In this document: positions 2,496 to 43,000 of the stretch, one piece after another
Position numbering within the stretch: position 1 is the first letter of the stretch
Layout: each line of letters starts with the position of its first letter
Origin: an uncultured Alphaproteobacteria bacterium
Lineage (GTDB): Bacteria > Pseudomonadota > Alphaproteobacteria > ATCC43930 > CGMCC-115725
Assembly: GCA_963787425.1 (NCBI GenBank)
Contig: CAWBCV010000022.1
Coordinates: forward strand, 39,370 to 103,369
DNA: 64,000 nucleotides
Direction of reading: 5' to 3'
Notes under the pieces: model-generated
Told to the model about the DNA's origin: nothing
The model's database searches: none
The model's input: the letters and a program-made list of their open reading frames with translations, nothing else
Program-made: the position numbers and the translations under genes

Positions 2496-4134
2496 CCTGA
2501 GAGCCTGTGAATGTTTAGTCTGCTTGGTGTAGTGGGTTCGGCGACGGCATTTCGCGGGCGGCGCTTGACGATGGCTTGGCCCGCGAGCGGTCTGGCCTTT
2601 CGACTGGTGGATAGAGAGCGAGCGGCGAGCGAGCGAGCAGGTGCCATCGGTCATTGAGTTGATGTCTTTGGTAACCATCTCAAGTCGCAGAGGCCCTGGC
2701 GGCCTGCTGCAGTACGAACGCACGCAGCATGTTGTGGGCGAGCGCGAACCACAGCAGCACGGCGCGGGCCTTCTCTTTGCCGCGCACCGACAGCCGGCTG
2801 AGCCCCATGCGGCGCGCCCAAGCGTTGGGGCACTCGGCCTTTGCGCGTTGCTTGTAGAGCGCCTTGCCCGGCTCGCTGGCCATGCGCTGGCGCCAATCCG
2901 CCACCCGCGGTTTGTCGTCGGCCCGCGGCGCGTAAGGATCGCTGCCATGCTTGCTGTGCACCGGCGGGCACCACAAGGCGATGCCGCTCGCATGCGCCCA
3001 TTCGATGTCGTCGTTCTTGGCGAAGCCGCCATCGACCAGGTAATCGGACGGCGTCGCCCTCGCCGCGCTCAATTGCTCCAATGCCGGGCGCGCCAAGCCG
3101 CGATCCGAGCCGGTGGTGTCGATGTCGACCGCGACGATGACCTGACCCCCTTGGCGCCGACACAATCTGCATGTTGTAGGCCGGCCGAAACCCGCCATCG
3201 GCCAGTTTCATCGCCCGGGCCTCGGCATCGGTGGTCGAGGCGCGCGGCTCCTTCTGCCGGCTGACCTCGGCCTTGTTGGTCTTCTCGCGACGCGTGCGCT
3301 CGGCCTCGAGCTCGCTCATCCGGTCGAGCGCCGCCTGCACCCGCTCCTCGCGCTCGCGCGCGGCGCGCTGTTGCGCCGCCTGCTGGCGCCGATCGCCCGC
3401 CGCCGGATCGGCTTCCAGCTCGGCGCGCAACCGCTCAACCCGCGCCTCGGCCGCCGCCGCCAGCTTGCCCAACCGCTCGCGCCGGCGGAACGAGCCGGCC
3501 CCCGCCGCCGCGCGTACCCTGATCCCGTCCTGCGCCAGCACATCGAGCGCCACAAGACCTTGCGCCACCAGCGTCGCCACCCCGCCGGCTAGCAACCGGT
3601 CGAGCACCACGGCATGCGCCACGCGAAAATCCGACAGTGTGTGGTAGTTCATCGACACCCCGCCGCACAGCCAGCGATAGGCGAGATGCTGCTCGCACAG
3701 CCGCGCCAGCTGCCGCGCGCTGCCGACCCCCTCCACCGTCGCCCACAGCCACAGCGCCATCATCAGCTCGGGCGCCGGCGGCGCCTGCCCCGGCACCCCC
3801 TCGCGCGCCTTCACCGCATCGTGCAAGGCGCGCAAATCGAGCCCCTGGACAAACGCCCACACCGCCCGCACCGGGTGATCGCGCGCCACCAAGTCGTCGA
3901 TTGTCGCGGCATACCAGCCCAGCTGGTGCCGTTCCGGCTGCCGCAACCGCGGCATTCCCCGACCCGGCACCTCCGGCACCAGCTGCTCCGGCAAATCCCC
4001 AAACAGTTCGCTATTGCCCGACACAGACCGGCTCCCCCTCAGACCAGTCGTCCCCGCCACGCAATAGCACCACCACAACTTGTTGCAACCCCTCAATCCT
4101 GCAAAAATGCGCGAAACATTCACAGGCTCTGAGG
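2496..4134 (-). mobile_element. IS1182-family (IS5-like) insertion sequence
   Basis: Terminal inverted repeats cctgagagcctgtgaatgttt (2496..2516) and aaacattcacaggctctgagg (4114..4134) match at 20 of 21 positions. They enclose an IS1182-type DDE transposase gene. Confidence 0.8.
2680..4024 (-). pseudogene. IS1182-family transposase, one frameshift
   Basis: GTG start at 4024 (VSGNSELFGDLPEQLVPE...HPVRAVWAFVQGLDL...YRWLCGGVSMNYHTLSDFR...GGFRPAYNMQIVSAP). The reading then continues in another frame (GGQVIVAVDIDTTGSD...YLVDGGFAKNDDI..., track ORF 2680..3198). The switch lies at the C5/G5 run 3146..3150. Confidence 0.8.
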
Positions 4135-14251: not shown

Positions 14252-16003
14252 ATGGGACATCAGCTCATGAGTTCAGTTTCGCGGCGCAGACTAACGCTAG
14301 CCGCGACAATGGTGGCTTTCTTCCTCTCGGCGTCCGCGCGAGCGGAGCCGGATGTCGATCGTTTCAAGGCTGAGATCGACGCGTTTATCGGACGGCTCGG
14401 ACCGAGTTCGAACGGCGCGGTCAAATGGGTCAGTTCGGATCCTTACGAGATCCGGCACGACGGCGAAGCGTTGCTGGCGACCATCGAGAATGCTCGGCTG
14501 TCGCTAAACACGCCACAACCAGGCCAGCTCACCCTTGACAGTATCGAGATCAGGGAGACCGCCCGAAAAGACGAGGGCAAGCTGGTCGAGCTCGCCCTCA
14601 CATTGCCAAAAAACATGATACTCAGGGAGGCCGACGGCACCGAAACCAAGATCACCCTGACGGGTGCAAGAGCAAATACGGTCGTAGAGGCCGAGTTGGG
14701 GCGCGGCCGGGAAACTCTTATCGAGATTGCGAGTGCGCGCCTCGATCAGCCTAAAACCGGCACATGGGTCACTCTCGGACCGCTTTCGATGTCCTCGAAG
14801 CTCGCCGCCGAGGCGAATGGCGGCTGGAGCGGGCCGGTTCAATTGGACGTCGAAGGGATAGAATACTTTCTGCCACAGGGTCCTTTCAGCGGCGCGGTCG
14901 ATCGGATCGCATTCACTGGTAGAAGCGCCGGTCCAAGGCTGAACGAACTCGACAAGCTGCGCCACGCGATCGACCAAATGCAAGCTGACGACAGCAAATC
15001 ACCGCAGGCCCGCGGCGCCGCGTTCCTAGCGGCCCTGTCGACAATTTCGGAACCTTTCAGCACCATACGGGGTGAACTCGCGTTGAAAGCTCTGACGGTC
15101 AGGAGCGTGACCGGTGAGACGCTGGTAGCTGTGGCGAAGGCGGGTAGCACCATGGAGGTCAGCGGACTCGACACGGAACAGGCGGCGCTGCGGTTCAGCA
15201 TCAGTCACGAGGGCCTCGACCTCGCGCCATCGCTCATCGAGAACGGGAAGGTGCCCCGCCGCATGGTGCTCGATTTCGGGGTGGCTGACCTCAATACGCA
15301 GGCGCTGACGAACCTGCTCCACGCCCTCATCACCGCGACTGACCAGCGGGTATCGGGGGAGAACGAGAGTGAAGCAAACAAACAGCAGGCTCTTCAGCAG
15401 GCGCTCGGAGCCGCGGCTATGCTCAACCCAACCTTCCATGTCTATGACTTCGCGATCGATACCAAGGAGGTCGGGGTGGATCTGACGGCTCAAGCCAAAG
15501 GTTCGCCCCTCGCGCCAAAAGCCTACACAGCCTCGGGAGATGTGGGGGTCCGGGGGTTTGACGCGATCCCGCAGCTGAGCGGGGCGATACCGTTCGCCCA
15601 ATACCTCCCGGTGCTCCGAGAAATTGGGGTCGAGGGGACGGCGCCGGACGGGACGCCGCGGCTGCAATTCCATCTCACCTCCGCGCCGACGGACTGGATC
15701 GCGATTAACGGTAACGACGTGAGCGCCTGGTTCGACGCGACCGAGACGGCGGCAGGTCAGCCGCGGCTCTTAAGGCCGTCCGATCCGCCTATGCGGGGGA
15801 CCGATGTCAAGAACGTGCAACGCGCCCTCGCGGCCGCAAAGATTTCGATCGAGCAGGACGGTGAGTACAATTCGGCCACAGCCGGCGCGGTTGCTCGTTT
15901 TCAAAAGCAGAACGGCCTGAACGTGAGCGGCTGCGTCGATGCTGCGACTCGACGGCGGCTCGCGGAGTTGGGAGACCCGCCGCGGCAAGGTGGCCGAAAT
16001 TGA
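14252..16003 (+). CDS. secreted protein with C-terminal peptidoglycan-binding (PG_binding_1-like) domain
   Basis: Signal peptide (SRRRLTLAATMVAFFLSASARA). The C-terminus is GTDVKNVQRALAAAKISIEQDGEYNSATAGAVARFQKQNGLNVSGCVDAATRRRL. The roughly 500-aa N-terminal region is unassigned. Start is 14252 or 14267. Confidence 0.7.
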   Translation: MGHQLMSSVSRRRLTLAATMVAFFLSASARAEPDVDRFKAEIDAFIGRLGPSSNGAVKWVSSDPYEIRHDGEALLATIENARLSLNTPQPGQLTLDSIEIRETARKDEGKLVELALTLPKNMILREADGTETKITLTGARANTVVEAELGRGRETLIEIASARLDQPKTGTWVTLGPLSMSSKLAAEANGGWSGPVQLDVEGIEYFLPQGPFSGAVDRIAFTGRSAGPRLNELDKLRHAIDQMQADDSKSPQARGAAFLAALSTISEPFSTIRGELALKALTVRSVTGETLVAVAKAGSTMEVSGLDTEQAALRFSISHEGLDLAPSLIENGKVPRRMVLDFGVADLNTQALTNLLHALITATDQRVSGENESEANKQQALQQALGAAAMLNPTFHVYDFAIDTKEVGVDLTAQAKGSPLAPKAYTASGDVGVRGFDAIPQLSGAIPFAQYLPVLREIGVEGTAPDGTPRLQFHLTSAPTDWIAINGNDVSAWFDATETAAGQPRLLRPSDPPMRGTDVKNVQRALAAAKISIEQDGEYNSATAGAVARFQKQNGLNVSGCVDAATRRRLAELGDPPRQGGRN

Positions 16004-16048
16004 CGGCAGCCGTATGGTCGGCCGTCCGCTTAGCGCAGGAGCACACCC

Positions 16049-16753
16049 ATGGATAAGGTTTACCACGACTCCCATGCCGCGCTTGCCGGCCTGCTGCAAG
16101 ATGGCATGACGGTGATGTCGGGCGGGTTCGGTCTTTGCGGGATTCCGGAGGCGCTCATCGCCGCGATCCGAAGCTCCGGGGTGACGGGCCTAACCGTCAT
16201 CTCTAACAACGCCGGCATTGACGGAGCCGGGCTCGGTCTACTTCTCGAGACCCGCCAAATCCGCAAGATGGTCTCCTCTTATGTCGGCGAAAACAAGCTC
16301 TTTGCCGATCTTTATCTCAGCGGCGAGCTCGAACTCGAATTCAATCCCCAAGGTACTCTCGCCGAGCGGATACGGGCCGGGGGCGCCGGCATTCCGGCAT
16401 TTTTCACCAAGACGGGCGTCGGCACTCTGGTGGCGGAGGGCAAGGAAATTCGCGACTTCGATGGGGAAAGCTACGTTATGGAGCGGGGCCTCGTCGCCGA
16501 TCTCGCAATCATACATGCCTGGAAAGCCGATCGCGAAGGCAACCTCGTTTACCGGAAGACCGCGCGCAACTTCAACCCGGTGATGGCCACGGCCGCGAAG
16601 GTCACCGTTGCAGAGATCGAGCATCTGGTCGAGCCCGGTGTCATCGACCCCGACCACATCCACACGCCCGGCATTTTTGTCAAACGCATCGTGCGCTGCC
16701 CGCCTTACGAAAAGCGCATCGAGCAGCGCACTGTCCGCAAGCGGGGCAATTGA
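16049..16753 (+). CDS. scoA: 3-oxoacid CoA-transferase subunit A
   Basis: MDKVYHDSHAALAGLLQDGMTVMSGGFGLCGIPEALI... is typical of ScoA and is followed by subunit B. Confidence 0.9.
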   Translation: MDKVYHDSHAALAGLLQDGMTVMSGGFGLCGIPEALIAAIRSSGVTGLTVISNNAGIDGAGLGLLLETRQIRKMVSSYVGENKLFADLYLSGELELEFNPQGTLAERIRAGGAGIPAFFTKTGVGTLVAEGKEIRDFDGESYVMERGLVADLAIIHAWKADREGNLVYRKTARNFNPVMATAAKVTVAEIEHLVEPGVIDPDHIHTPGIFVKRIVRCPPYEKRIEQRTVRKRGN

Positions 16754-16771
16754 GGCACAGGAGAAAGAAGA

Positions 16772-17413
16772 ATGGCTTGGTCACGCGACGAAATGGCGCG
16801 CCGCGCCGCGGCGGAGCTCGAGGACGGCTTTTACGTCAATCTCGGCATCGGTATCCCGACCCTGGTATCGAATTTCATTCCGCCGGGGATCACGGTTCAG
16901 CTGCAAAGCGAGAACGGAATGCTCGGCATGGGCCCGTTTCCGTTCGAGGGGGAAGAGGACCCCGACCTGATCAATGCCGGCAAGCAGACAATCACGGAGT
17001 TGCCGTCGACGAGCTATTTCGATAGCGCGCAATCTTTCGGCATGATCCGGGGCGGTCATGTCGACCTGTCGATCCTCGGGGCTATGCAGGTGGCGGAGAA
17101 CGGCGATCTCGCCAACTGGATGATCCCCGGCCGCATGGTCAAAGGGATGGGCGGCGCGATGGACCTCGTCGCCGGGGTGAAGCGGGTCATCGTGCTGATG
17201 GAGCATACAGCGCGCGGTGAGCCGAAATTGCTGCATCGATGCGCACTCCCGCTGACCGGCAAAGGGGTGGTGGACATCGTGATCACCGACCTCGGCGTCT
17301 TCACGATCGATGGCACCGGGATGCTGCTGACGGAACTGGCGCCCGGCGTGTCGCTCGACGAAATCCGGCAAAAGACCGAGGCATCCTTCACGGTGACCTC
17401 CAGCCTCCGCTGA
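16772..17413 (+). CDS. scoB: 3-oxoacid CoA-transferase subunit B
   Basis: [19 protein letters not shown]...[12 protein letters not shown]...[12 protein letters not shown] (catalytic Glu region). Confidence 0.9.
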
Positions 17414-17620
17414 TCGGCCCGGCTGATCACCCACAGGGATCAGGCTGCTCTGGCGCCCGCTTTTCCGATCTCCGCCACCCGGCCGACTTCTATGCTCGTC
17501 ACACCGTTGCCTCCTAATGTTGCCACCGGCGGTGCCGCTCGTATCGACCACGGTGGTAGTTTTTGCTAGACTAACATCGCGCAGCGCGCTGCAACTAACG
17601 CGCAGTTTTCGAGCCCGCCC

Positions 17621-18778
17621 GTGCCTGCTTCGTCGCGCGACCTCCGCCTAGATTTTTTCCGTGGTCTTGCTCTGATATTTATATTCGTGGATCATATCCC
17701 GGAGAATATCCTCAGCTATTTTACCATCCAGGCAGTCGAATTCTTTGATGCAGCCGAGGTCTTCATCTTTATCTCGGGTTACACCGCTGCTCTCGTGTAT
17801 GGGCAGACGCTCGTCTCACAAGGAACGTTATATGCGACTGCCCGGATACTCGGCCGTGCCTGGCAGCTTTACGTCGCTCATATTTTCTTGTTCGTCATGT
17901 TCATCGCCGAAGTGTCTTATACCGTGACGACCTTCAATAATCCAATGTACAACGATGAAATGCGGGTCGGTGATTTTCTCAACGAGCCGCACATCGCGAT
18001 CGTCAAGGCACTCCTTCTCGAGTTTCAGCCGACCTTTCTCGATATCCTCCCGCTCTACATCTTGCTTCTGGTGATCTTCCCGGTCGTCTTGCTTGGCTTG
18101 CGCTTATGGCCGCTGATCGTCTTATTGCCGTCCTTCCTACTTTATCTCATCGTCCAGGCCACCAACCTATCTGTTCCGGCTTATCCGGAGGGTCACGTCT
18201 GGTATTTCAACCCTCTCGCCTGGCAGTTTGTGTTCATCACCGGAGCCGCGCTCGGTTTTCCTGGGCGGCAAGATCGATGGTGGTCGAGTTGGGCTCGGCC
18301 GGCATTGCCGATAGCGGCGGTCGTTGTTGCGGCGGGGTTTGTTGTCAAGCTCAGCTGGACGATCCACGGTATTTGGGACCCGTTCCCCGGACTCCTTCTC
18401 AAGGAGTTGTGGCCGGTGAACAAAAACAACTTGTCCCCGATCCGGGTGATCCCCTTCTTCGCAGCAGTCGCGGTCGTTGCGATCGTCGTACCCGCTAATG
18501 CGGCCATTTTGCGTTCCCTAGCAGCGAAACCTTTGGTCCTGTGCGGTCAACAATCGCTGGAGATCTTCTGCCTTGGAATCCTGCTGTCGGCACTTGGGCA
18601 TTTTGTTCTTTCGGAATACGATTCGGCGATCAGCATCCAGATCCTCGTTAATCTTGCAGGCATTTTCGTGATGTGCCTAACTGCGATAATGTTGAATTGG
18701 TATAAAACCATGGGTCGAACGCAGCTGCCGCGGTCCGCGGCCGCCCAATCCGCTGGCGGCAGTCGTCTCGGCAAATGA
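17621..18778 (+). CDS. OpgC domain-containing membrane acyltransferase
   Basis: GTG start. RDLRLDFFRGLALIFIFVDHIPEN is characteristic of the OpgC family; about 10 hydrophobic segments. Confidence 0.85.
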   Translation: MPASSRDLRLDFFRGLALIFIFVDHIPENILSYFTIQAVEFFDAAEVFIFISGYTAALVYGQTLVSQGTLYATARILGRAWQLYVAHIFLFVMFIAEVSYTVTTFNNPMYNDEMRVGDFLNEPHIAIVKALLLEFQPTFLDILPLYILLLVIFPVVLLGLRLWPLIVLLPSFLLYLIVQATNLSVPAYPEGHVWYFNPLAWQFVFITGAALGFPGRQDRWWSSWARPALPIAAVVVAAGFVVKLSWTIHGIWDPFPGLLLKELWPVNKNNLSPIRVIPFFAAVAVVAIVVPANAAILRSLAAKPLVLCGQQSLEIFCLGILLSALGHFVLSEYDSAISIQILVNLAGIFVMCLTAIMLNWYKTMGRTQLPRSAAAQSAGGSRLGK

Positions 18779-32978: not shown

Positions 32979-35066
32979 CTATTCGACGATGACCTGACCG
33001 TACATCCACGGGTGCGGCGTGCAGATGTAGAAATAGGTGCCGGGTTCCTTGAAGGTGATCTCCTTGGATTCGCCCTTGTTCAGAGCACCCGTGTCCCAAT
33101 CGCCGACCTTGCCCTTGTTGAACGCCGTGGCCGTGTGCGGAATGTCGCCGACGTTGGTGAACGTCAAAGTGGTTCCCGCCTTCACCCGAGTGCGGGCCGG
33201 CCAATAGGCGTACTCGACGTTATTGTCGCCGATTTTGACCTTATCCACGCCGTCGGCAACTGCTCCTCCCGGCCCGGCGACGATAGCCGGAGGTGGTGGC
33301 GGCCATAACGGCCCGAGCTGCCCCTTGAGCGAGAAGGCCCATACGGCATCGCCATAGGCACTCCCTTGGATCGAATTGCCGCCGGTGACAATCGCGATGT
33401 ACTGGTCGCCGTCGACTTCATAGACCATCGCGGGGGCGTCGGCGCCAAAGCCGGTCTGGAATTTCCACAGCACCTCCCCGGTCTTGGCGTCGAGCGCGGC
33501 GAAGTTGCCGTCGGGCTCGCCACGTAAGAGGAGGCCTCCGCCAGTCACGGTCGAGCCGCCTCCGCCACCCATGCGGTAAGGCATCTGGTGTTGCCAGGCG
33601 ATCTTGTTTGTCCTGCTGTCGATCGCGGTAAAAGTGCCGCTCAAAGGCGAACCGATCGGCGGCGCCTGGGTGCCGTTCGTATACCGCCGCCCGGTGGTGT
33701 ACTCGCTGGGAACGCGCGAGAACACGCTCGTGCGGATCGTTCCCGGCACGTAGAGATAACCCGTATCGGGATCGTAGGGCATGGGCGACCAATTCGTACC
33801 GCCTTGCCCCGACGGCTGAATGAGAACCGGTTCTTCCCAGAAGGCCTCGAAAATACACCCGGCCTTCTCGTATCCCTCCATCGGCTGCGCGCATTGCGGC
33901 ACCGTCGCGTCGCCGATCGGGTAGGGCTGCGTTTTGGCCGTTTTCTGGCGCGGCTCCTGCGGCACCGGACGCTCCTCGATGCCGATCAGCGGTTTGCCGT
34001 TGGTGCGGTCGAGGATGTAGACCCAGCCGGTGCGTCCGGCTTCGGCTATCGCCTTGCGTGGTTGACCGTCGATCACCGTGTCGAACAATACGACCGGGCT
34101 CGCCGCGTCGTAGTCCCAGATGTCGTGATGCACCTCCTGGAAATGCCAGACGTGTTCGCCGGTCTTGGCGTTCAGCGCGACTATGGAGGCGCAGAACAGA
34201 TTGTCGCCCTCGCGCATCGACCCGTCATAATCGGGCCCGCAATTGCCTGTCGCGAAGTAGATGAGCCCGAGCTGCGGATCGAGGGCAGGCGTGTTCCATA
34301 CAGATGCGCCGCCCCGCATTGCGTGGTCGGTGCCGGCCGGCCAAGTGTCGCTGCCGACCTCGCCCGGGCCGGGAAGGGTAAACCAGCGCCACAGGATCTT
34401 TCCGGTCTTGGCGTCGAGCGCCGTCAGCCGGCTGCGCACCCCGAATTCCCCTCCGGTGTTACCGCTGTAAACGATGCCGTCGTAATAGAGCGGCGCGCTG
34501 GTGACGCCATAGCCGTTACGCCAGTCCTCGATCGGCGTCTTCCACACTTCCTTGCCGGTCTTGATGTCGAGCGCTAGGACATTGGCATCGAGCTGGCCGA
34601 GAAACAGCATGTCCTCGCCCATCGCCAAGCCGCGGTTCAGCCAGCCGCAGCACACCGTCGAGATCTTCTGGTCGATCCCCGACCAACGCTCCCACAAGAA
34701 CTCACCGGTCTTCGCATTGAGCGCGAACACATCGTCGTTTCCCGTGACGACATACATGATCCCGTCTTTGACGAGCGGCGTCGCCTCGGCCGAGTACTTC
34801 CCGCCAAACCCGGAACTTTTGAGGCGGGCCATCCAGGCTCCTTTGAGCTGCTTGACGTTGCTGGTTTCGATCTGCTTCAGCGTGGAGTACCGCTGATTGG
34901 TCATATTGCCGCCGCTGGTGACCCAGTCCTTGCCGACCGGGCTCTGCAGCAAGTGATCGATTTCCGGATCGGCAGCGCGAACCTGCGTTGCCCCCGAAAA
35001 CACCAAACCGCCCGCCAGCATTCCCGCCAGGATTAGTCGGAGTATTCGTTGCACTCGACGTCGCAT
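32979..35066 (-). CDS. PQQ-dependent dehydrogenase (methanol/ethanol family) fused to a C-terminal amicyanin-like cupredoxin domain, paralogue 1
   Basis: Signal peptide, vicinal Cys139-Cys140 (TVCCGWLNRG), GGEFGVRSRL, GDNLFCASIVALNAKTGEHVWHFQEVHHDIWDYD. Pro-rich linker LWPPPPPAIVAGPGG. C-terminal domain with H644 (DIPHTATAF) and C682-T-P-H685-P-W-M688. Confidence 0.9.
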   Translation of the reverse strand: MRRRVQRILRLILAGMLAGGLVFSGATQVRAADPEIDHLLQSPVGKDWVTSGGNMTNQRYSTLKQIETSNVKQLKGAWMARLKSSGFGGKYSAEATPLVKDGIMYVVTGNDDVFALNAKTGEFLWERWSGIDQKISTVCCGWLNRGLAMGEDMLFLGQLDANVLALDIKTGKEVWKTPIEDWRNGYGVTSAPLYYDGIVYSGNTGGEFGVRSRLTALDAKTGKILWRWFTLPGPGEVGSDTWPAGTDHAMRGGASVWNTPALDPQLGLIYFATGNCGPDYDGSMREGDNLFCASIVALNAKTGEHVWHFQEVHHDIWDYDAASPVVLFDTVIDGQPRKAIAEAGRTGWVYILDRTNGKPLIGIEERPVPQEPRQKTAKTQPYPIGDATVPQCAQPMEGYEKAGCIFEAFWEEPVLIQPSGQGGTNWSPMPYDPDTGYLYVPGTIRTSVFSRVPSEYTTGRRYTNGTQAPPIGSPLSGTFTAIDSRTNKIAWQHQMPYRMGGGGGSTVTGGGLLLRGEPDGNFAALDAKTGEVLWKFQTGFGADAPAMVYEVDGDQYIAIVTGGNSIQGSAYGDAVWAFSLKGQLGPLWPPPPPAIVAGPGGAVADGVDKVKIGDNNVEYAYWPARTRVKAGTTLTFTNVGDIPHTATAFNKGKVGDWDTGALNKGESKEITFKEPGTYFYICTPHPWMYGQVIVE

Positions 35067-35087: not shown

Positions 35088-37154
35088 TTATTCAACGATT
35101 ATCTGTCCGTACATCCAGGGGTGCGGTGTACAGATGTAGTAGTAGGTGCCGGGCTCAGAGAAGGTGATGGCCTTCAACTCCCCCTTCTCCAATGGGCCAG
35201 TGTCCCATTTGCCCTTTTCGAACGCGGTTGCCGTGTGCTGGACATCACCGACATTGGTGAAGGTCACCGTCGTCCCCGCCTTGACCCGAGTGCGGCCCGG
35301 CCAATAGGCGTATTCGACGTTGTTGTCGCCGATCTTGATCAAGTCGACCCCGTCCGCGACCGGCCCTGTGGGTCCGGCGATGCTCTGTGGGACGGGAGGC
35401 GGCCACAGCGGACCCAATTGCCCCTTCAGCGAGAACACCCACACCGCATCGCCGTTTGCACTGAGCATCCCCTGATTGCCGCCGGTCGCGATGGCGACAT
35501 ACTCGTCTCCGTCTACCTCGTAGACCGCCGGAGGAGCATCGGCCCCGAAACCGGTTTGGAACCGCCATAACTCTTCGCCCGACTTGGCGTTAATCGCCAG
35601 GAAATTGCCGTCAGGCTCGCCGCGGAAGACGAGGCCGCCGGCCGTCGTTGTCGACCCGCCCCCCTGACCGACGCGATATGGCGTCTTGTTCTGCCAGACG
35701 ATCTTGTTGGTGTTGCCGCCCATTGCGGTAAAGGTACCGCTCATCGCCGACCCGATCGGCGCCGCCTGGGTGCCGCCGGTATAGCGCTGCCCGAGCTTGT
35801 AGGTATCGCCGTAACGAGCAAACGCGCTGGTTCGGACCGTGCCGGAAACGAAGAAGCTGCCGGTTTCCGGATTGTAGGACATCGGCGCCCAGTTGGTGCC
35901 GCCGATCCCGGAGGGCTGGATCAGCACCGGCTCTTCCCAGAACGCCTCGAAGATGCAGCCAGCCTTTTCGTAGCCGCTCGCAGGCATCGGCTCGGCACAT
36001 TGCGGCACGATCGCGTCGCCGAGCGGGAAGGGCTGCGTCTTTGCCGTCTTTTGCTTCGGCTCCTGCGGCACCGCGCGCTCCTCGACACCGATCAGCGGTT
36101 TGCCGTTGGTGCGGTCGAGGATGTAGACCCAGCCGGTTCGTCCGGCCTGGGCGATGCCCTTGCGCGGCTGGCCATTGATCACCGTGTCGAAGAGGACGAC
36201 CGGGCTCGCCAAGTCATAATCCCAGATGTCGTGGTGAACCTCCTGAAAATGCCAAGCATACTTGCCGGTCTTGGCGTTCACCGCGAGGACCGAGGCGCAG
36301 AACAAATTATCGCCTTCGCGCATCGATCCATCGTAATCCGGGCCGCAATTGCCGACGGCGAAGTAGACGAGGCCGAGCTCCGGGTCGAGAGCCGGGGTGT
36401 TCCAGATCGACGCCCCGCCGCGCATCGCGTGATCGGTGCCGGAGGGCCAAGTGTCGCTGCCGACCTCGCCCGGCGCCGGCAAAGTGTAGGCCCGCCACAG
36501 GATCTTGCCGGTCTTGGCATCGAGCGCGGTCAGACGCCCGCGTATGCCGAATTCACCGCCGGTGATGCCGCTATAGACAATTCCGTCGTAATAGAGCGGC
36601 GCATTGGTGATTCCGTAACCATTGTGCCAGTCCTCGACCGGGGTCCTCCACACCTCCTTGCCGGTCTTGATGTCGAGCGCGACGACATTTGCGTCCATCT
36701 GGCCGATGAACAGCATCCCTTCGCCCATCGCCAGCCCACGGTTGAGCCAGCCACAGCAGACGGTCGAGATCGTCTGGCCGATGCCGGACCAGTGCTCCCA
36801 AAGGATCTGGCCGGTCTTGGCATCGAGCGCGAAGACATCGTCGTTCCCGGTGCTAATATACATGATGCCGTCTTTGACGAGCGGCGTCGCCTCGAACGAA
36901 TACTTGCCGCCGAGCCCGGAGCCCTTGAGGCGGGTCATCCAGGCTCCTTTGAGCTGTTTGACGTTGCTGGCGTCGATCTGCTTCAGCGTGGAGTACCGCT
37001 CGTTCGTCAGATTTCCGCCGTTCGTCACCCAGTCCTTTCCGACCGGGCTCTGCACCAATTTGTCGATTTCGGGATCGGCTGCCCAAACCGCGCCCGCTCC
37101 CGCGACGAGCACGCCGAGAGCTCCCGATAGGACGATTCGCAGTCCGCACCGCAT
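35088..37154 (-). CDS. PQQ-dependent dehydrogenase fused to an amicyanin-like cupredoxin domain, paralogue 2
   Basis: Collinear with paralogue 1 and identical by eye at most aligned positions. Same CC pair, WDYD (D312, D314), linker LWPPPVPQSIAGPTG, and DVQHTATAF...CTPHPWM. Separated from paralogue 1 by 21 nt that contain GGGAGA. Confidence 0.9.
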   Translation of the reverse strand: MRCGLRIVLSGALGVLVAGAGAVWAADPEIDKLVQSPVGKDWVTNGGNLTNERYSTLKQIDASNVKQLKGAWMTRLKGSGLGGKYSFEATPLVKDGIMYISTGNDDVFALDAKTGQILWEHWSGIGQTISTVCCGWLNRGLAMGEGMLFIGQMDANVVALDIKTGKEVWRTPVEDWHNGYGITNAPLYYDGIVYSGITGGEFGIRGRLTALDAKTGKILWRAYTLPAPGEVGSDTWPSGTDHAMRGGASIWNTPALDPELGLVYFAVGNCGPDYDGSMREGDNLFCASVLAVNAKTGKYAWHFQEVHHDIWDYDLASPVVLFDTVINGQPRKGIAQAGRTGWVYILDRTNGKPLIGVEERAVPQEPKQKTAKTQPFPLGDAIVPQCAEPMPASGYEKAGCIFEAFWEEPVLIQPSGIGGTNWAPMSYNPETGSFFVSGTVRTSAFARYGDTYKLGQRYTGGTQAAPIGSAMSGTFTAMGGNTNKIVWQNKTPYRVGQGGGSTTTAGGLVFRGEPDGNFLAINAKSGEELWRFQTGFGADAPPAVYEVDGDEYVAIATGGNQGMLSANGDAVWVFSLKGQLGPLWPPPVPQSIAGPTGPVADGVDLIKIGDNNVEYAYWPGRTRVKAGTTVTFTNVGDVQHTATAFEKGKWDTGPLEKGELKAITFSEPGTYYYICTPHPWMYGQIIVE

Positions 37155-37597: not shown

Positions 37598-37927
37598 TCA
37601 TATGGCAATTTCAGGCCTTGCTATGCGAATAGCGCATCGGCGCGCCATCTCTAGTAACCCCCCACCATGCCAGGTCATCGGCCCAGGCATTTCGCATTGG
37701 TAAGCTGACGAGCCGGAAGCCACCCGGCAGTGCCGCTCAGACATGCATTGATTGAACATGAGATCGGCCGGCATCCCGATCTGTGCGTCCGCGTATTGGC
37801 GGCAGATCTGCTGCATCAAGGCCGTGTAGTCGTAGGATTGGCTCGGCCGCTGCGCAAGCGCAGCGGCACTTGTGCACAGGAAGATGATCGCCGTGAAACG
37901 AAGCCAGCTGAAGCCCAGCACCACCAT
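37598..37927 (-). CDS. hypothetical small secreted Cys-containing protein
   Basis: MVVLGFSWLRFTAIIFLCTSAAALAQ is signal-like, and the mature part has five Cys. The 3' end runs into the attatggcaat-type repeat, so the true stop and coding status are uncertain. Confidence 0.35.
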   Translation of the reverse strand: MVVLGFSWLRFTAIIFLCTSAAALAQRPSQSYDYTALMQQICRQYADAQIGMPADLMFNQCMSERHCRVASGSSAYQCEMPGPMTWHGGGLLEMARRCAIRIARPEIAI

Positions 37928-38022
37928 CGCATCATAAGCAGAAACGCGAATAGGGCGAAGGCGCCGCTGCGGTGACGCGAGTTCCAGCCAAAGCTCGCCG
38001 GGACCGAAACCAGGTTCAAATC

Positions 38023-38568
38023 TCACGAAGAGCGCCCGAGCAAGATAGCGACACACTGGGCTGCGGCTTGCTGCGCGCGCTTGTCGATCTCCTCGTCGGT
38101 CAGAGTGCTGAGCGGGTGTTCGATCACGACAGGGGTGAGATCGCGCATGCCGAGCGCGTCGCGCTGCACCTCCGCCTCGTGCAGGAATTCAGTGGTGACG
38201 ACAACTGCCGTGGGGCGGCCCGCGGCTTCCAATCTGATGCCGTCATGCGTACAGCACGACGTGCACGACCCTCAGTCGCCGATCGCGGTCACCACGATGT
38301 CGTTATCGGCCGCGATGGTCGCGATGAATGCCGGGTCGGCCTCCTTGGCGAAGCTCTCCTTGCGGTAGTAGTTCACGGAAGCAAAGGAGACTTCTTCCTG
38401 AAGTTTCGCCACGGTTTTGCGCAGCAAGCGGTTAGCGTTCCATTTGGTGTTGTCGAGGACACCCAACCGCAGCCCGTCGAGCGTGGCGGGGCGCTCAGAA
38501 AGCGCGAGCGGCTCGGTCTCGACGACGCCGCGTGGATCGAAAACGATCAGATCCGGTTCATTGTTCAT
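38023..38568 (-). CDS. candidate selenoprotein, UGSC-motif family (in-frame TGA at 38274..38272 read as Sec)
   Basis: ATG at 38568 lies behind GGAGA. 98 codons end in ...DNDIVVTAIGD, then TGA, then the same frame continues GSCTSCCTHDGIRLEAAGRPTAVVVTTEF...VVIEHPL to the stop at 38023. This gives U-G-S-C-T-S-C, matching UxxCxxC. The track splits this into ORFs 38272..38880 and 38023..38232, which are exactly in frame (42 nt apart). Confidence 0.7.
38242..38269 (-). promoter_or_regulatory. candidate SECIS-like stem-loop 2 nt downstream of the in-frame UGA
   Basis: In the mRNA, GUCGUGC (38269..38263) pairs with GCAUGAC (38248..38242): 7 bp including one G-U. The 14-nt interior can add 2 bp, leaving an 8-nt GU-containing loop. 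Folded by eye only. Confidence 0.35.
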
Positions 38569-38598
38569 TTCGGGTTCTCCAATAAGACCTCCTCGTCT

Positions 38599-38616
38599 TC
38601 CCGGCGAAGGCCGGGA
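38599..38616. repeat. REP-type hairpin (tcccggc-gaag-gccggga) between the 374-aa gene and the UGSC gene
   Basis: Read directly. No U-tract follows it on the mRNA strand. Confidence 0.6.
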
Positions 38617-38675
38617 CGCACGGCTGCTATGGCCGCCGGGCTTCGCCAGTGTGACGGATTGGGGAGGTCGCACGC

Positions 38676-39800
38676 TTAAAGATAGCACGTGCCGTCGACG
38701 CAGATCGGCGCCCTCGGCTCGGACGCGCTCTCGATGCTGCGCAATACGGGGGACGACATGTGGCCCCAGCCGGGGATGAAGGCGGAAAACCGCCCGGCTT
38801 CGCCGCCGATGACGAATAGGTGGATGTGGTCGGGGCCCGGCACGATCGGGATCCGTGCCTCCGGCTCGCGCTTGTACCATTTCGGCAGATTGCGGTTGTA
38901 GATCTTGCCGTAGCGCTCATTGAAGGTGAGGTCTGAAAAGAGATTGTAAGCGTGCAGCGCCAGATAATTGCGTACGTCGTGCCGGGTCCAGCCCTTGGCG
39001 GCGATTGTGCGGGCATGTTCCGGCCCGATCACGACGGCGCAATGCCCGCTCGACACCGCATTATTGTTGGCGATTGTGCTCATTGCCGAGCAGATGCTGT
39101 CGAGGATGCCTTCCGGGTCGTTCGCGACATGGTTGGTGACGCTGTGCGGCGGCTCCGCGGCCAGCACGAACACTGCGGAGTCTTCGGGACTGAAGCCCTT
39201 CTCGACATGATAGGGCGCCCAGGGGCTGGCCGTCTCGTTCTCGGCGACGCAATAAGTGTATTTGCCCGGGTGCCCGAGCGTGCTCTTGTCAAGGTCGCCG
39301 GGCCTGCCGCCACCGACATTGAGCAGCGCGAGGCGCAGAGCCCGCCCGATTGTCGCATTGGCGCGGTTTCCCGAGCCGAAAGCGTTGCAGTCGCCGTTCA
39401 TGCCGATTTTGCGGGCTATCGGCCCATTGACCACCAAGAGCGGCGCCGCCATGTGGGTCGTCGCTTGCACCCCGTTGAGGTTGAAGGCTTTCGCAGTCAG
39501 TGCCAGCATTGCGGCCCGCACCACCGGCGCGTATTCGGCTTTGCAGCCCGCCATCACCATGTTCATGGCCAGTAGCTCGCGCGTCAAACTGCCGTGCCGC
39601 GGCGGCACTTTGCATTCGATAAGTTGCGGATTCCCGCCGAGCGCCTCGACAAAGGCGTCGACCAGCTCTCGCGTCGGCGGCACGATCGGCAGGCCGTCGG
39701 TCCATCCCTGTTCAAAATACCATTCGACGAGATTCGTGCCTGCCGGCACCCGCAGCACGCACTTCTCAGTCTGCCCGGGCTTTATCGCGGGGCGCGCCAT
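38676..39800 (-). CDS. conserved-looking hypothetical protein (374 aa), function unknown
   Basis: Uninterrupted ORF with non-repetitive, globular-looking composition (GWTDGLPIVPPTRELVDAF...NLNGVQATTHMAAPLLVVNGP...GSGNRANATIGRALRL...ICVDGTCYL). I cannot assign a family by eye. Confidence 0.7.
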   Translation of the reverse strand: MARPAIKPGQTEKCVLRVPAGTNLVEWYFEQGWTDGLPIVPPTRELVDAFVEALGGNPQLIECKVPPRHGSLTRELLAMNMVMAGCKAEYAPVVRAAMLALTAKAFNLNGVQATTHMAAPLLVVNGPIARKIGMNGDCNAFGSGNRANATIGRALRLALLNVGGGRPGDLDKSTLGHPGKYTYCVAENETASPWAPYHVEKGFSPEDSAVFVLAAEPPHSVTNHVANDPEGILDSICSAMSTIANNNAVSSGHCAVVIGPEHARTIAAKGWTRHDVRNYLALHAYNLFSDLTFNERYGKIYNRNLPKWYKREPEARIPIVPGPDHIHLFVIGGEAGRFSAFIPGWGHMSSPVLRSIESASEPRAPICVDGTCYL

Positions 39801-39829: not shown

Positions 39830-40240
39830 TCAATCTATCCGCGCCAATACCTGCTCCAGGGCCGCAAAGAACTGCTGCCACCCGCCCTTGGCGCCCTGGT
39901 AGGCCTGCTGCTGATCCGGCCGGAAGCCCGACTGCTCCATGCGCAGGTGGGTCCCCGTGCTCGTAGGGGTGAGAGTCCAAGTGACGACACTCTCGAGACC
40001 ATAGGCCGCCCACGTGTAAGACAGCGTTTTGTTCGGCTCGACTGCCAGGACCTGACAGTCGACAGCGCCCCAGTCTGCGCGAAGATCGAAACGGTGACCC
40101 ACGACTGGCTTGAAATCGTTCTTCATGAGCCACTCCTCGATCAGGTGCGGTTGTGTGAGCGCGCGCCAGATCTTCTCCGGCGGAAAAGGGATTTCTCGTT
40201 CGACAATGACGGAAAGCGTTTCGGTCGCGGGTTTGCTCAT
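39830..40240 (-). CDS. SRPBCC (AHSA1/START-like) domain protein
   Basis: LSVIVEREIPFPPEKIWRALTQPHLIEEWLM...HRFDL. ATGA-type overlap with the upstream ArsR gene; this is the usual ArsR-SRPBCC pair. Confidence 0.85.
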   Translation of the reverse strand: MSKPATETLSVIVEREIPFPPEKIWRALTQPHLIEEWLMKNDFKPVVGHRFDLRADWGAVDCQVLAVEPNKTLSYTWAAYGLESVVTWTLTPTSTGTHLRMEQSGFRPDQQQAYQGAKGGWQQFFAALEQVLARID

Positions 40241-40560
40241 TGGTCCATCCTTTTGAGTAGATCTTCGAGGTGATCAAACCGGCTCTGCCAGAACCCGACC
40301 ATGTGGCTTGTCCAGTCGATCAGCAGGGCCAAGGCGCCGAGCTGTGCGCTATAGTGCGTCTGGCGACCTTCGTGGCGGTCGCGCACCAGCCCGGCCTGCT
40401 TCAGGACCCCGAGATGCTTTGAGACGGCCGGTTGCGAGACCCCGGCCCGAGCCGTCAGGGCCCCGACCGTCTGCTCTCCTTCGCGGCACAATCGCTCGAA
40501 GATAGCCCGCCGAGTCGGATCGGCGAGCGTTCTGAAGAGCACATCGTGAGCGGTCGGCAT
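40237..40560 (-). CDS. ArsR/SmtB family transcriptional regulator
   Basis: VLFRTLADPTRRAIFERLCREGEQTVGALTARAGVSQPAVSKHLGVLKQAGLV. ATG at 40560. Confidence 0.85.
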   Translation of the reverse strand: MPTAHDVLFRTLADPTRRAIFERLCREGEQTVGALTARAGVSQPAVSKHLGVLKQAGLVRDRHEGRQTHYSAQLGALALLIDWTSHMVGFWQSRFDHLEDLLKRMDQ

Positions 40561-40866
40561 TTGGGATCCATAACCTACTGGATTGACGTATAACCACTGA
40601 GATATGTTTGAGTCAAGCTGAAACGAAACCAGAGAGCTTTCGAGATTTCCTCCTTCGAACAACGTCCGGGAGTCCGCTAGATTGCACAGCCGGCTCGCCG
40701 TTCCGTAAGCGGCACCACTCCTGAATAGGTATCCTTGATTGCCATACCCGTTGGTTATGCATCATGCATTATCTTATCGATCATACGTGGTCGTGGCGGC
40801 GTGGTGACGCGCTTCATATTGCCGCTATCCGCAGATGCCTACGCTATGCAACTTTGTAAACAGGGC

Positions 40867-41836
40867 CTAGTCTCCGCCGATCGTCATCGAACTCCGGCCA
40901 ATCCAGAAACGGTTCAGAACCCGTGTCAAGGGTGCCGGACGGTTCCGCCCGGCAAGTCGCGCGAGCGCCTCGTGATAGGGCGCGACATAACGCAATCGGG
41001 CCGGCACCCAGGGATGGACGTGGCGGAACACGGTAAGCACCCGCTCGACCGAGCGCAGCTCCGCGGGACCATACGGCAACTCGAACGCATCCCGCAGCCG
41101 AGGCGGCAACAGGCTGGCGGTCAAAGCTCGATACCAAAACGGCGCGCGTAGGCGAGTTCCGGCACCGGAGAAGAGCTCGGCGGCGATGCTGCCGGCGGCG
41201 CTGCTCACCGCGAGCATGTCCGATCTGAACATGTCGTCGACGTACCGGGCAAAGTCCGGCCAGCTCTGCGGCAGCGCGCTCTGTGGAATGCCAAACAGCG
41301 CCGCGAACAGTCGGGCATCGGTGTAATAGCGCTCCCGATCCCGGGCCGACAGCGGCGGGTTGACGAGCTGGTAGGCCAGGAGGGCGGTCTCGACCAGCGT
41401 GGCGTGAACCCAGCGCAGCGCCGCGACATCATTGGCGCAATAAGGCGAGCCGACGGCAAAAGCGCCTGCATCCTCCCCCAGTGCGCCACTGATCGCGGTA
41501 TGGCGGCGATGCAGGCGGCGGGCGGCCGCGAGTGCCTGGCCCGTCGTGCCGAACACCATCGTAAAGACGATGCTGAAGGTCCGGTGAAACCGGCCAATCG
41601 GGTCGGTGAGAACTCCGGGAATGCTGGGCGATCGCGTCGGCGACCCAGGGATGGGCGAGCTGGAGCAGCAATGCGCGACCCGCTCCAAGGAAAACCGCCG
41701 CCTCGCGGTCGATGCGCCAAATGACCGAATTCGGGCCAAAGATGCCCGCCGGTCCGCCTGCCGAGGCAGACCGGACCATCGCTAGCTCGCGCTCGAGCTC
41801 GGCCTCGTTGACGATGGCGGACGATCCCGGCGTCAT
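40867..41836 (-). pseudogene. MpaB/DUF2236-family oxygenase gene with one frameshift
   Basis: The N-terminal part starts at ATG 41836 (IFGPNSVIWRIDREAAVFLGAGRALLLQLAHPWVADAIAQHS, frame of ORF 41429..42013). It continues as VLTDPIGRFHRTFSIVFTMVFG...RRLHRRH... in the frame of ORF 40867..41739. The switch is near 41610..41625. Confidence 0.7.
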
Positions 41837-41855: not shown

Positions 41856-42257
41856 TCAGCCTCTCCTGAAATCCTCGAGCGAGAGCCCAAGGGCAGAGGC
41901 CCCCTCTTCGAGGTAGTCGGGGAGGAGCGGCGTGCCGACCAGATAACTGGTGACATTCGCAATGTTTGTTTCCGCGGCTTCGCGCAACGCCTCCGGCCAG
42001 CTGCCCGCGTCATAGTCGCCGCGGCCGAGCCACATCAGCGCGAGCAACTCCTGACGCTCGGGCGGGCCGAGCCCGTCGATGGCGTCGCGCAGCTCCTCCT
42101 CGGTCGGATTGTCCGGCGTGTCGAGCAGGACCTGCCGCTCATCATCGTCGGGCGGGTCCGAGCCGGTCACCGCATCCGGCTCGACCGGCACCTCGGCATC
42201 GAACTCGCGCGCCTTGGCGATGATAAAGGCAAGTGTTTCGGGCGGAATGACCAGCAT
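41856..42257 (-). CDS. DUF3775 domain protein
   Basis: ETLAFIIAKAREFDAEV...ELRDAIDGLGPPERQELLALMWLGRGDY. Confidence 0.7.
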   Translation of the reverse strand: MLVIPPETLAFIIAKAREFDAEVPVEPDAVTGSDPPDDDERQVLLDTPDNPTEEELRDAIDGLGPPERQELLALMWLGRGDYDAGSWPEALREAAETNIANVTSYLVGTPLLPDYLEEGASALGLSLEDFRRG

Positions 42258-43000
42258 TAGGGTTTCTCTTTGATGCTTCGAAGTTGAACACTAAACGCCG
42301 GCTCGGGCCAGCGCCACTGCTTGACCTCCGGCATATCGTCACCATAGCGGGTGATGTACTGCTTGTGCTCGATCAGCTTGTCGCGCATCTCTTGCTTGGC
42401 GTAAGCGGCGAGGTAACCGAGCGTCGGCACGCGGTCGATCACATTGTTGACGAGATGGAAGCGGTCGAGATCGTTACGCACGACCATGTCGAAGGGCGTG
42501 GTCATCGTCCCTTCCTCCTTGTAGCCGAGAACATGAATGTTGCGATGGTTGGTACGCCGGTATGTCAATCGGTGGATGAGCCAGGGATAGCCGTGATGGG
42601 CAAAGATCACCGGTTTGTCGGTCGTGAACAACGCGTCGAAATCGTGGTCGGTAATACGCTCCTCGTATGGCTGCAGGGTCATCAGATCGACGACATTGAC
42701 GACTCGGATCTTGAGGTTGGGGATGTGGCGGCGCAGCAGATCGACCGCCGCCGAGGTCTCCATAGTCGGAACATCGCCGGTGCAAGCCATCACGACATCG
42801 GGCTCACCGCCGCGGTCGTTGCTCGCCCATTCCCAAATGCCGATCCCGGCATCGCAGTACTTGATCGCGGCGTCGATGTCGAGCCATTGCGGCGCAGGCT
42901 GCGTGCCGGCGACGATCACATTGATGCGGTCCCAGCTGCGCAGGCAATGATCGGTGACCCACAGCTGCCGGACATCCCCAGCCTCCCCCTGCGCTCGCAA
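42257..43000 (-). pseudogene. phosphoketolase (Xfp) C-terminal remnant, about 240 of about 790 aa
   Basis: [48 protein letters not shown]...[45 protein letters not shown]. Only the C-terminal third of the family is present, and similarity starts about 10 codons after the ORF Met. Confidence 0.85.

Follow-up and report, generated by a model that had tools for sequence, protein, structure and literature searches.

A UGSC-family selenoprotein gene with a SECIS-like hairpin and a conserved upstream partner gene in an uncultured alphaproteobacterium

The UGSC gene and its in-frame UGA

The stretch of DNA analysed here (64 kb from contig CAWBCV010000022.1 of an uncultured alphaproteobacterium; hereafter the window, to whose positions all coordinates refer) carries on its minus strand a gene of the UGSC selenoprotein family that runs through an in-frame UGA codon. 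A hairpin resembling a selenocysteine insertion sequence (SECIS) lies behind this codon, and a gene for a 374-residue protein, here called the partner, lies upstream (Table 1). An earlier reading made from the letters of the window without database searches (the sequence-only reading) had proposed that two listed open reading frames (ORFs), 38023..38232 and 38272..38880, are probably one selenoprotein gene. The two ORFs share one frame. Starting from the ATG at 38568..38566, 98 sense codons ending in ...ADNDIVVTAIGD lead up to the TGA at 38274..38272; past this codon, the reading begins with GSCTSCCTHDGIRLEAAGRPTAVVVTTEFLHEAEVQRDALGMRDLTPVVIEHPLS..., and the frame reads GSCTSCCTHDGIRLEAAGRPTAVVVTTEF...IEHPLS... 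as far as the TGA at 38025..38023. The stretch of the predicted product that spans the selenocysteine (Sec, U) is ...VVTAIGD-U-GSCTSCCTHDGIR. The N-terminus MNNEPD... aligns from residue 1 with the closest relatives. By contrast, the 38880 start of the longer ORF is spurious, as the part above 38568 is an out-of-frame overlap with the 3' end of the partner gene. In a six-frame scan of the 64 kb, this was the sole site at which a single in-frame TGA joins two coding-like segments.

Table 1. Features of the UGSC locus (window positions)
Feature	Position	Strand	Details and basis
UGSC-family selenoprotein gene	38023..38568	-	181 codons, Sec = codon 99, terminal TGA 38025..38023; translation, hidden Markov model (HMM) matches, dN/dS
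Ribosome-binding site GGAGA	38576..38580	-	8 nt upstream of ATG 38568; read from sequence
In-frame UGA = Sec codon, U of U-G-S-C-T-S-C	38272..38274	-	TGA in 82/82 sequences; Cys in 119/120 homologues
SECIS-like hairpin	38237..38266	-	minimum free energy (MFE) fold, comparative pairing, frozen codons
Upstream partner gene, 374 aa	38676..39800	-	conserved same-strand neighbour; fused to redox domains elsewhere
Partner-UGSC spacer, 107 nt	38569..38675	-	often only 16-60 nt in relatives

For HMM scoring of the 181-residue product, U was entered as C. The product matched NF041046 of NCBIfam, the model library used by NCBI for genome annotation, with 152.6 bits (cut-off 125; profile positions 2-146 of 147), and Pfam PF24696 with 197 bits (cut-off 25; profile positions 2-171 of 172). 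NF041046 bears the name "UGSC family (seleno)protein", so that the RefSeq product name given in the sequence-only reading proved correct. The motif is U-G-S-C in the window and C-G-S-C in 119 of 120 full-length homologues, and all 81 related loci described below read TGA-GGN-TCN-TGY. Since the third Cys of the window motif is replaced by Trp in fused family members, the core of the family is [U/C]-G-S-C.

In the past, a UGSC-containing selenoprotein was listed in 2007, among others from the aerobic alphaproteobacterium Hyphomonas neptunium (PMC1976440). In 2008 the family was described as a major selenoprotein family in the Global Ocean Sampling (GOS) data, with 255 Sec against 21 Cys forms; the protein was considered "likely" to be thioredoxin-like, a generic redox role was suggested, and it was found to be sometimes fused to a domain named Unknown_1 (PMC2398784). 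A later survey counted 33 UGSC genes in 26 sequenced organisms (PMC5029168, 2016), and reviews of 2022 and 2026 still treat the family as functionally uncharacterised. The suggestion that such a module in an aerobic alphaproteobacterial context would be new therefore fails, given the 2007 listing and the existence of a curated NCBIfam model. The gene described here is a further member of a selenoprotein family catalogued since 2007: like other members it scores above both curated cut-offs, and has the [U/C]-G-S-C core with UGA at the family Sec column; the family occurs in aerobic Alphaproteobacteria, as reported for Hyphomonas neptunium, and Sec forms outnumber Cys forms, as in the GOS data. 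The window gene itself shows no difference from the family, and what is added below concerns the family as a whole.

Conservation of the UGA codon and of the coding sequence

With one genome per species scanned, 80 loci of 55-94% protein identity were found, which together with one further locus (L001) make 81 and, with the window, 82 sequences. The metagenome-assembled genomes CAVSTA01, CAWBIT01, CAVXLL01 and CAVOWQ01 hold relatives at 91-94% identity, and Reyranella sp. CPCC 100927 (L046) carries a Sec form. The 80 loci derive from uncultured Alphaproteobacteria, Stellaceae, Reyranella, Rhodospirillaceae, Burkholderiales, other Betaproteobacteria, Gammaproteobacteria, Chloroflexota and Methylomirabilales. 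In all 82 sequences the aligned codon is TGA, and the frame is kept on both sides of it. Among the 120 best full-length database homologues, 119 carry Cys at the Sec column; the sole exception is the closest homologue, P0001 (79% identical), for which JGI prints W and whose DNA has TGA. The expectation that Sec or Cys would align at this column was thus borne out.

The printing of W for an in-frame Sec UGA recurs in some source pipelines, both for UGSC (...IGDWGSC...) and for GrdB-like proteins (...VAAWPVC...; P0001, P0241, P0242), and selenoproteins printed in this way then pass as Trp-containing full-length proteins. Elsewhere, generic gene callers split such genes or cut them short, and database entries end at the Sec codon or begin after it, in agreement with the prediction that an automatic caller would miss or split the gene.

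Selection before and after the UGA was estimated from comparisons with L002-L006, the five closest relatives (dS 0.33-0.53). The ratio dN/dS was 0.07-0.11 for codons +16 to +78 after the UGA and 0.10-0.17 for the 90 codons before it. As the value after the UGA is as low as that before it, the downstream part is translated in this lineage. Moreover, the residues encoded right after the UGA, ahead of any start codon, do not vary.

These data bear on the alternative that the UGA simply terminates translation, yielding a 98-residue product followed by a remnant (ORF 38023..38232) that is untranslated or has a start of its own, or that the locus is a pseudogene or reflects a sequencing error. Such a reading would agree with the two entries returned by generic ORF lists and with the fact that no Sec machinery is visible in the window. 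However, it is contradicted by the TGA kept in 82/82 sequences, the invariance of the residues encoded directly behind it, the low dN/dS downstream, an HMM match that spans the stop, and a hairpin that is tied to UGA forms and missing from Cys forms (see below), and we attach next to no probability to it. The shared frame, the spanning match, the universal TGA and the downstream selection confirm the observation and support the view that 38568..38023 is one gene for a 181-residue UGSC-family selenoprotein, as the sequence-only reading had put forward.

A SECIS-like hairpin downstream of the UGA

The MFE fold of 76 nt around the UGA contains a hairpin composed of CGUCGUGC, the loop UGUAC and GCAUGACG, which is extended by GUGC/GCAU below a bulged A. 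The lower stem pairs 38266..38263 with 38240..38237, the bulged A is at 38262, and the upper stem pairs 38261..38254 with 38248..38241; the apical loop occupies 38253..38249, with its G-U at 38252..38251. The hairpin begins 5 nt and its upper stem 10 nt after the UGA. A stable hairpin with a SECIS-like apical loop, as anticipated in the sequence-only reading, is present behind the Sec codon. Its exact register differs from the one proposed there, a 7-bp stem of 38269..38263 with 38248..38242. The latter can form, since GUCGUGC occurs twice, but it is the weaker register: 89% of its cells are paired with no compensatory cell, compared with 95% and 7 compensatory cells for the upper stem (ungapped alignment A1), and two of its seven pairs are mismatched in 23 and 34 of 75 sequences.

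Across the related sequences, the MFE fold is built around this hairpin in 74 of 78, and the pairs of the hairpin are possible in all 78. Six upper-stem pairs are 100% paired, five of them invariant and one alternating between G-U and G-C; one upper-stem pair is G-C in 45 sequences and A-U in 7. A three-helix model in which the UGA itself enters the lower stem is 85.9% paired, with one pair being C-G in 19 and G-C in 15 sequences. In codon usage, Ser+5 is TCG in 80/82, Cys+6 is TGC in 82/82 and Cys+7 is TGT in 80/80 sequences, even though TGC prevails over TGT as Cys codon here (76 against 6 at Cys+3), and the third positions of other invariant residues such as Gly+1, Ser+2 and Thr+4 vary freely. 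Codons frozen at these three residues next to invariant residues with variable third positions indicate that the constraint acts on the RNA. In two loci (L072 and L074) the peptide CC[TM]HD has changed to CS[VL]HD with the stem kept (UCG/CAU to UCA/CAU, G-U to A-U), and their loops, AGUGU and AGUCU, retain the G-U.

The equivalent 32 nt of three Cys-form genes reach only -3.9 to -6.1 kcal/mol, compared with a mean of -14.4 kcal/mol (range -10.1 to -18.5) in 78 Sec forms. The SECIS-like hairpin is absent from these Cys-form genes and is thus tied to UGA forms.

In comparison with the SECIS of E. coli fdhF, the element likewise lies directly 3' of the UGA inside the coding sequence, carries a G-U in the apical loop and has a conserved apical stem-loop of about 17 nt. 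The 10 nt from the UGA to the upper stem come close to the E. coli distance, which Liu et al. are said to have put at 11 nt in 1998. In contrast to fdhF, the upper stem lacks a bulged U and sits above a bulged A, the loop has 5 nt (UGUAY or AGUNU), and no Rfam model fits. Judged by its position and its loop G-U, both as expected, the hairpin is a candidate SelB-binding SECIS.

Selenocysteine machinery in related loci

Among the 25 tRNA genes found in the related loci, 14 are tRNA-Sec genes, spread over 13 loci and located within 10 kb of the UGSC gene. Within the same distance, selB occurs in 17 loci and selA in 11. In L061, selC, selB and selA follow each other on one strand and adjoin the divergent two-gene module of partner and UGSC on the other strand (selB 375.8 bits with TIGR00475; selA 583.2 bits with TIGR00474). 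In the genome of the window, the UGA would be decoded in a SelB-dependent manner.

As a separate observation, a betaproteobacterial contig from a metagenome-assembled genome (L068) carries two tRNA-Sec genes about 1.4 kb apart (2256..2349 and 3728..3821, minus strand), which adjoin selB, selA and the UGSC module; tRNA-Sec is normally single-copy.

Reading of the UGA without selenium, for instance where a near-cognate or suppressor tRNA inserts Trp or Cys, or under a reassigned code, would fit the W that JGI prints for P0001 and for the GrdB-like P0241 and P0242, and the fact that no sel gene or tRNA-Sec is visible in the 64-kb window. However, UGA is the commonest ordinary stop of the window, terminating 18 of 37 long ORFs including the UGSC gene itself; because of this stop-codon usage, genome-wide reassignment of UGA is ruled out. 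In addition, homologues carry Cys rather than Trp at the Sec column, the module is linked to selC, selB and selA in other loci, and both hairpin position and loop G-U are those expected of a SelB-binding element. Selenium-free decoding is accordingly scarcely credible, and we consider it almost certain that the UGSC gene is a true Sec gene.

The upstream partner and its fusions

The partner has no Pfam or NCBIfam match, and for Pfam none even at E <= 10. A homologue lies upstream of the UGSC gene on the same strand in 74 of the 81 loci, directly adjacent in nearly all of them, and its identity across loci (65-93%) is above that of UGSC itself. It is the sole gene of the window that is conserved together with UGSC beyond the closest relatives, and it also adjoins Cys-form UGSC genes, namely those of Parapusillimonas sp. 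JC17 (L083) and Rhodococcus (L085). No promoter-like or terminator-like site was found in the 107-nt spacer, and the two genes are probably co-transcribed.

More than 7,500 database homologues of the partner were found, and all those with a source name are called hypothetical; an exhaustive profile search at E <= 1e-3 yielded 5,529 clusters at 50% identity. Domain architectures were counted in the 150 best representatives of this family. The partner domain stands alone in 87, follows a full or nearly full UGSC domain in about 14, and follows only the post-Sec part of UGSC in a further 14, which are Sec-type fusions cut at the TGA. In 5 the partner precedes a UGSC domain ending exactly at ...TAIGD, 5 have tandem partner domains, and 25 have another N-terminal extension. 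UGSC-partner fusions thus occur in both orders, and they probably correspond to the UGSC/Unknown_1 fusion of the 2008 GOS paper (PMC2398784).

A Pfam scan of twelve long-extension forms lacking a local UGSC match identified AhpC/TSA-Redoxin domains in five of them, three of which were read and show CPTC, CATC (both CxxC) and CPTS. One further form carries the catalytic beta chain of ferredoxin:thioredoxin reductase (FTR; FeThRed_B) and one a post-Sec UGSC fragment; the remaining five have no Pfam match, two of these being tandem duplications of the partner domain. The occurrence of AhpC/TSA-Redoxin or FTR-beta domains in the same position means that the UGSC slot is filled elsewhere by established thiol-disulfide modules.

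Five proteins of 709-741 aa (P0275, P0286, P0292, P0371 and P0381) contain tandem partner domains in one polypeptide and no redox domain.

Some apparent fusions had to be discarded. P0191 (450 aa) is a frameshift read-through with the junction ...ADLRRRHLLSV..., comparable to ORF 38272..38880, and not a genuine partner-UGSC fusion; it demonstrates that assembly errors can yield false fusions of this kind. P0166 (594 aa) is a chimera with phosphofructokinase, and UGSC homologues with an extended N-terminus proved not to be partner fusions.

Residues conserved throughout the partner family are Asp35-Gly-Leu-Pro38, Cys86 (96%), Asn148, Arg153 (100%), Cys184 (89%), Glu187 and His262. The window protein ends in C-V-D-G-T-C-Y-L, and 69 orthologues of the unfused subfamily share, without exception, a C-terminus of the form C-x-[DS]-G-[TS]-C-x-L. 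Cys86, Cys184 and the C-terminal Cys367/Cys372 are candidate redox cysteines. The tail CVDGTCYL has the same layout as the tail CESGACKI of E. coli NrdA, whose C-terminal tail acts as a redox shuttle of reducing equivalents.

The arrangement can be compared with thioredoxin, glutaredoxin and NrdH acting on the tail (CxxxxC) of ribonucleotide reductase R1: here, too, a small [U/C]xxC protein is encoded beside a larger Cys-containing enzyme, and the UGSC slot is interchangeable with CxxC thioredoxin-fold domains. The match of the tail with that of NrdA is an analogy over 8 residues and not homology. In contrast to these redoxins, UGSC uses Sec and has a predicted flavodoxin-like fold, and the partner is unrelated to ribonucleotide reductase.

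Predicted structures

The UGSC structure was predicted with AlphaFold2 (AF2) from the 79%-identical orthologue P0001, in which Trp is printed at the Sec position. The model (predicted local distance difference test score, pLDDT, 88.9; predicted template modelling score, pTM, 0.84) comprises five beta-alpha units, with Sec located between the strand 91-97 and the helix 100-115. In a Foldseek search against the PDB it matched azoreductase, flavodoxin, lumazine synthase, RpiB and PTS-IIB with template modelling (TM) scores of 0.4-0.5 and E values of 3e-5 to 1e-3, and none of the 50 listed matches has a thioredoxin fold. The fold of UGSC is therefore predicted to be flavodoxin-like and not thioredoxin-like. 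For the partner, weak top matches to 4Fe-4S hydro-lyases and to PrpD/IRG1 were rejected as noise.

The fold also bears on the idea that UGSC acts on its own as a general antioxidant or thioredoxin-like protein, its position beside the 374-aa gene being without functional meaning. The thioredoxin-like fold and generic redox role proposed in the 2008 GOS paper (PMC2398784) would be in keeping with it, as would five loci that show no partner upstream (L009, L034, L035, L039 and L056). In contrast, the top structural matches are flavodoxin-like, with no thioredoxin fold among the 50 listed, the partner is adjacent in 74/81 loci across phyla, and the two domains have been fused repeatedly in both orders. 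This explanation seems very unlikely to us.

Comparison with GrdB

According to the sequence-only reading, the U-x-x-C-x-x-C motif and its surroundings recall the selenoprotein B components of glycine, sarcosine and betaine reductases. In functional terms, UGSC would then be a GrdB/PrdB-like selenoprotein B whose Sec acts as the catalytic nucleophile on a substrate held by the upstream protein, much as GrdB acts together with GrdE, a pyruvoyl protein. Reductive cleavage of C-N or C-X bonds would then be the reaction of the pair, and UGSC would be more than a simple redox carrier. The motif of the window is indeed that of GrdB (PMC13188914). Furthermore, GOS reads of GrdB show the same local layout of hydrophobic strand, U-x-x-C, helix and E-x-x-G-[IP]-x-T strand, hhalign aligns the Sec columns in register, and a two-subunit arrangement with an unannotated partner would be compatible with such an enzyme. 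Thioredoxin-system genes sit within grd operons, and the Rhodococcus locus (L085) has genes for a thioredoxin reductase-like flavoprotein and a thioredoxin downstream of the module on the same strand.

However, UGSC has no match to the Pfam GRDB model (PF07355) at E <= 10, in contrast to a GOS GrdB read used as control (27 bits, cut-off 22), and the hhalign comparison gave an E value of 0.56 and a probability of 0.1%, with a GrdB profile of only 4 reads. Neither the neighbours in the window nor those that recur across 85 loci include a homologue of GrdA, GrdC, GrdE or PrdA. In fused members, Trp takes the place of the third Cys. Ordinary CxxC redoxin domains fill the UGSC slot elsewhere, which suits an electron carrier more than a catalytic subunit specific for one substrate. 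When a GOS GrdB read served as the seed, the homology search retrieved no more than 21 near-identical proteins, mostly truncated at the Sec codon. Since a sequence search found no related PDB chain for the GRDB-family protein P0259, the lack of a GrdB match in Foldseek is uninformative.

Overall, both families have U-x-x-C(-x-x-C) after a hydrophobic beta-strand, a second protein, and Sec and Cys variants. They differ in length (181 aa for UGSC as against 347 positions up to Sec in the Pfam GRDB model), in the lack of significant sequence or profile similarity, in the third Cys, which is not conserved across the UGSC family, and in context, which for UGSC is that of aerobic soil and freshwater Proteobacteria and not of amino-acid-fermenting anaerobes. 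Of the proposed kinship, the shared motif and the similar local layout stand, whereas membership of the GrdB family is not supported; as a functional alternative to a redox carrier, a GrdB-like role is a minority reading that we regard as unlikely.

Genomic neighbourhood

Within the window, the module is flanked on one side by a small ORF and two genes for pyrroloquinoline quinone (PQQ) dehydrogenases with a cupredoxin domain, and on the other by an AHSA1/SRPBCC-ArsR pair and an MpaB/Lcp-like gene. The small ORF is conserved only in close relatives, and none of the flanking genes is conserved with the module. In other loci, several neighbours recur: a family III CoA-transferase directly downstream in 11 loci and in the Cys-form locus L085, a thiamine pyrophosphate-dependent (TPP) enzyme in 10 loci and L085, a beta-eliminating lyase in 10 and a MaoC dehydratase in 8. 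They give a weak hint of organic-acid or CoA-thioester metabolism. Seven Stellaceae-type loci also share a molybdopterin oxidoreductase of about 960 aa, encoded some 4-5 kb downstream of the module (for example at 15129..18023, plus strand, in L045).

The small ORF downstream of the UGSC gene (37598..38056, minus strand) overlaps the 3' end of UGSC in its longest reading, from GTG 38056. It has no Pfam match and is conserved only in L002-L006. The encoded sequence contains several Cys and a hydrophobic segment at its N-terminal end, and with a later start codon the ORF may encode a small secreted protein. The tandem PQQ-dependent dehydrogenases (32979..35066 and 35088..37154, minus strand; 695 and 688 aa) both carry a C-terminal copper domain of the plastocyanin/azurin type (PF01011 + PF00127), and the pair is kept in L002, L003 and L006. 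Quinohaemoprotein dehydrogenases carry cytochrome c at the position of the cupredoxin here, and a cupredoxin in its place on a PQQ dehydrogenase is an unusual architecture.

On the other side, the partner gene and the MpaB/Lcp-like gene (40867..41739) are separated by an AHSA1/SRPBCC gene and one for an ArsR-type regulator (39830..40662, minus strand). Since the MpaB-like gene abuts the partner gene in L003-L006, the AHSA1/SRPBCC-ArsR pair looks like a lineage-specific insertion. Further along, the region 42296..42964 on the minus strand (ORF 42257..43000) encodes only the phosphoketolase domain XFP_C and matches residues 566-791 of the 794-aa phosphoketolase of relatives; the N-terminal 565 residues are missing, and the fragment is probably a gene remnant from a deletion or rearrangement near 43000.

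Proposed role and implications

Combined, these observations can be accommodated in one mechanism. A ribosome reaching the UGA at 38274..38272 would not terminate, as the downstream hairpin would recruit SelB with Sec-tRNA(Sec) and selenocysteine would be inserted; the same gene would then end at an ordinary UGA. The product would be a flavodoxin-like alpha/beta protein in which Sec99 and Cys102 lie where a beta-strand ends and a helix begins; such a site would suit a selenenyl-sulfide couple that forms reversibly. UGSC would work with the 374-residue upstream product, presumably an enzyme that keeps two cysteines, as its dedicated redox module whose selenol/thiol pair is exchanged with a disulfide of the partner, possibly via the invariant C-terminal C-x-x-G-x-C tail of the latter. 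The single frame, the family membership, the conserved UGA and hairpin, the selection downstream and the linkage by operon and fusion are direct observations on which this mechanism builds; SelB-dependent decoding in the genome of the window, the redox role of UGSC and the tail as a shuttle are inferred. As a whole, a single UGSC selenoprotein gene with hairpin-directed Sec insertion, acting as redox module of the upstream enzyme, is the best explanation, and we consider it probable.

Several observations weigh against this explanation. Neither the 64-kb window, in which no tRNA gene, tRNA-Sec, selA, selB or selD was found, nor the loci of the closest relatives contain tRNA-Sec, selA, selB or selD. 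The hairpin of the window sequence taken by itself is unexceptional (z = -1.46), so that its weight comes from the comparison across sequences and not from the window fold; Rfam yielded no match, whether gathering thresholds were applied or, near the gene, a limit of E <= 10. Covariation is modest, since the element hardly varies and shares its sequence with conserved codons. As to the role, the assignment as redox module draws on gene context and fusions. The UGSC model was built on orthologue P0001 and not on the window protein itself, the model of the partner is only moderately confident (pLDDT 68, pTM 0.71), and the partner has no sequence match in the PDB and no significant Foldseek match (best E 0.33). 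Finally, fused forms lack the C-terminal CxxGxC tail, and the shuttle idea therefore applies at most to the unfused subfamily.

With these points taken into account, we still lean towards UGSC being a dedicated selenol/thiol redox module of an uncharacterised and very widespread enzyme family. We propose more tentatively, and with slightly less than even confidence, that UGSC and the 374-aa protein form a previously undescribed two-component selenium-dependent oxidoreductase. If so, its catalytic part would come from a family of more than 5,500 clusters (50% identity) with no Pfam or NCBIfam model and no solved relative. UGSC would then represent a new class of redoxin on a flavodoxin-like instead of a thioredoxin fold, evolutionarily interchangeable with CxxC thioredoxin-fold and FTR-beta modules, and several lineages would inherit it together with selC, selB and selA as a single selenium-use island.

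The UGSC gene of the window is ordinary by itself, and the family as a whole is of more interest. New for the whole family are the upstream partner, the linkage to selC, selB and selA in some lineages, the predicted flavodoxin-like fold and the defined SECIS-like hairpin. With the partner, a very large protein family is flagged that has no coverage in curated libraries, and the UGSC family gains an experimental handle in the form of a defined partner, candidate redox cysteines, a defined candidate SECIS and a slot equivalent to that of a CxxC redoxin.

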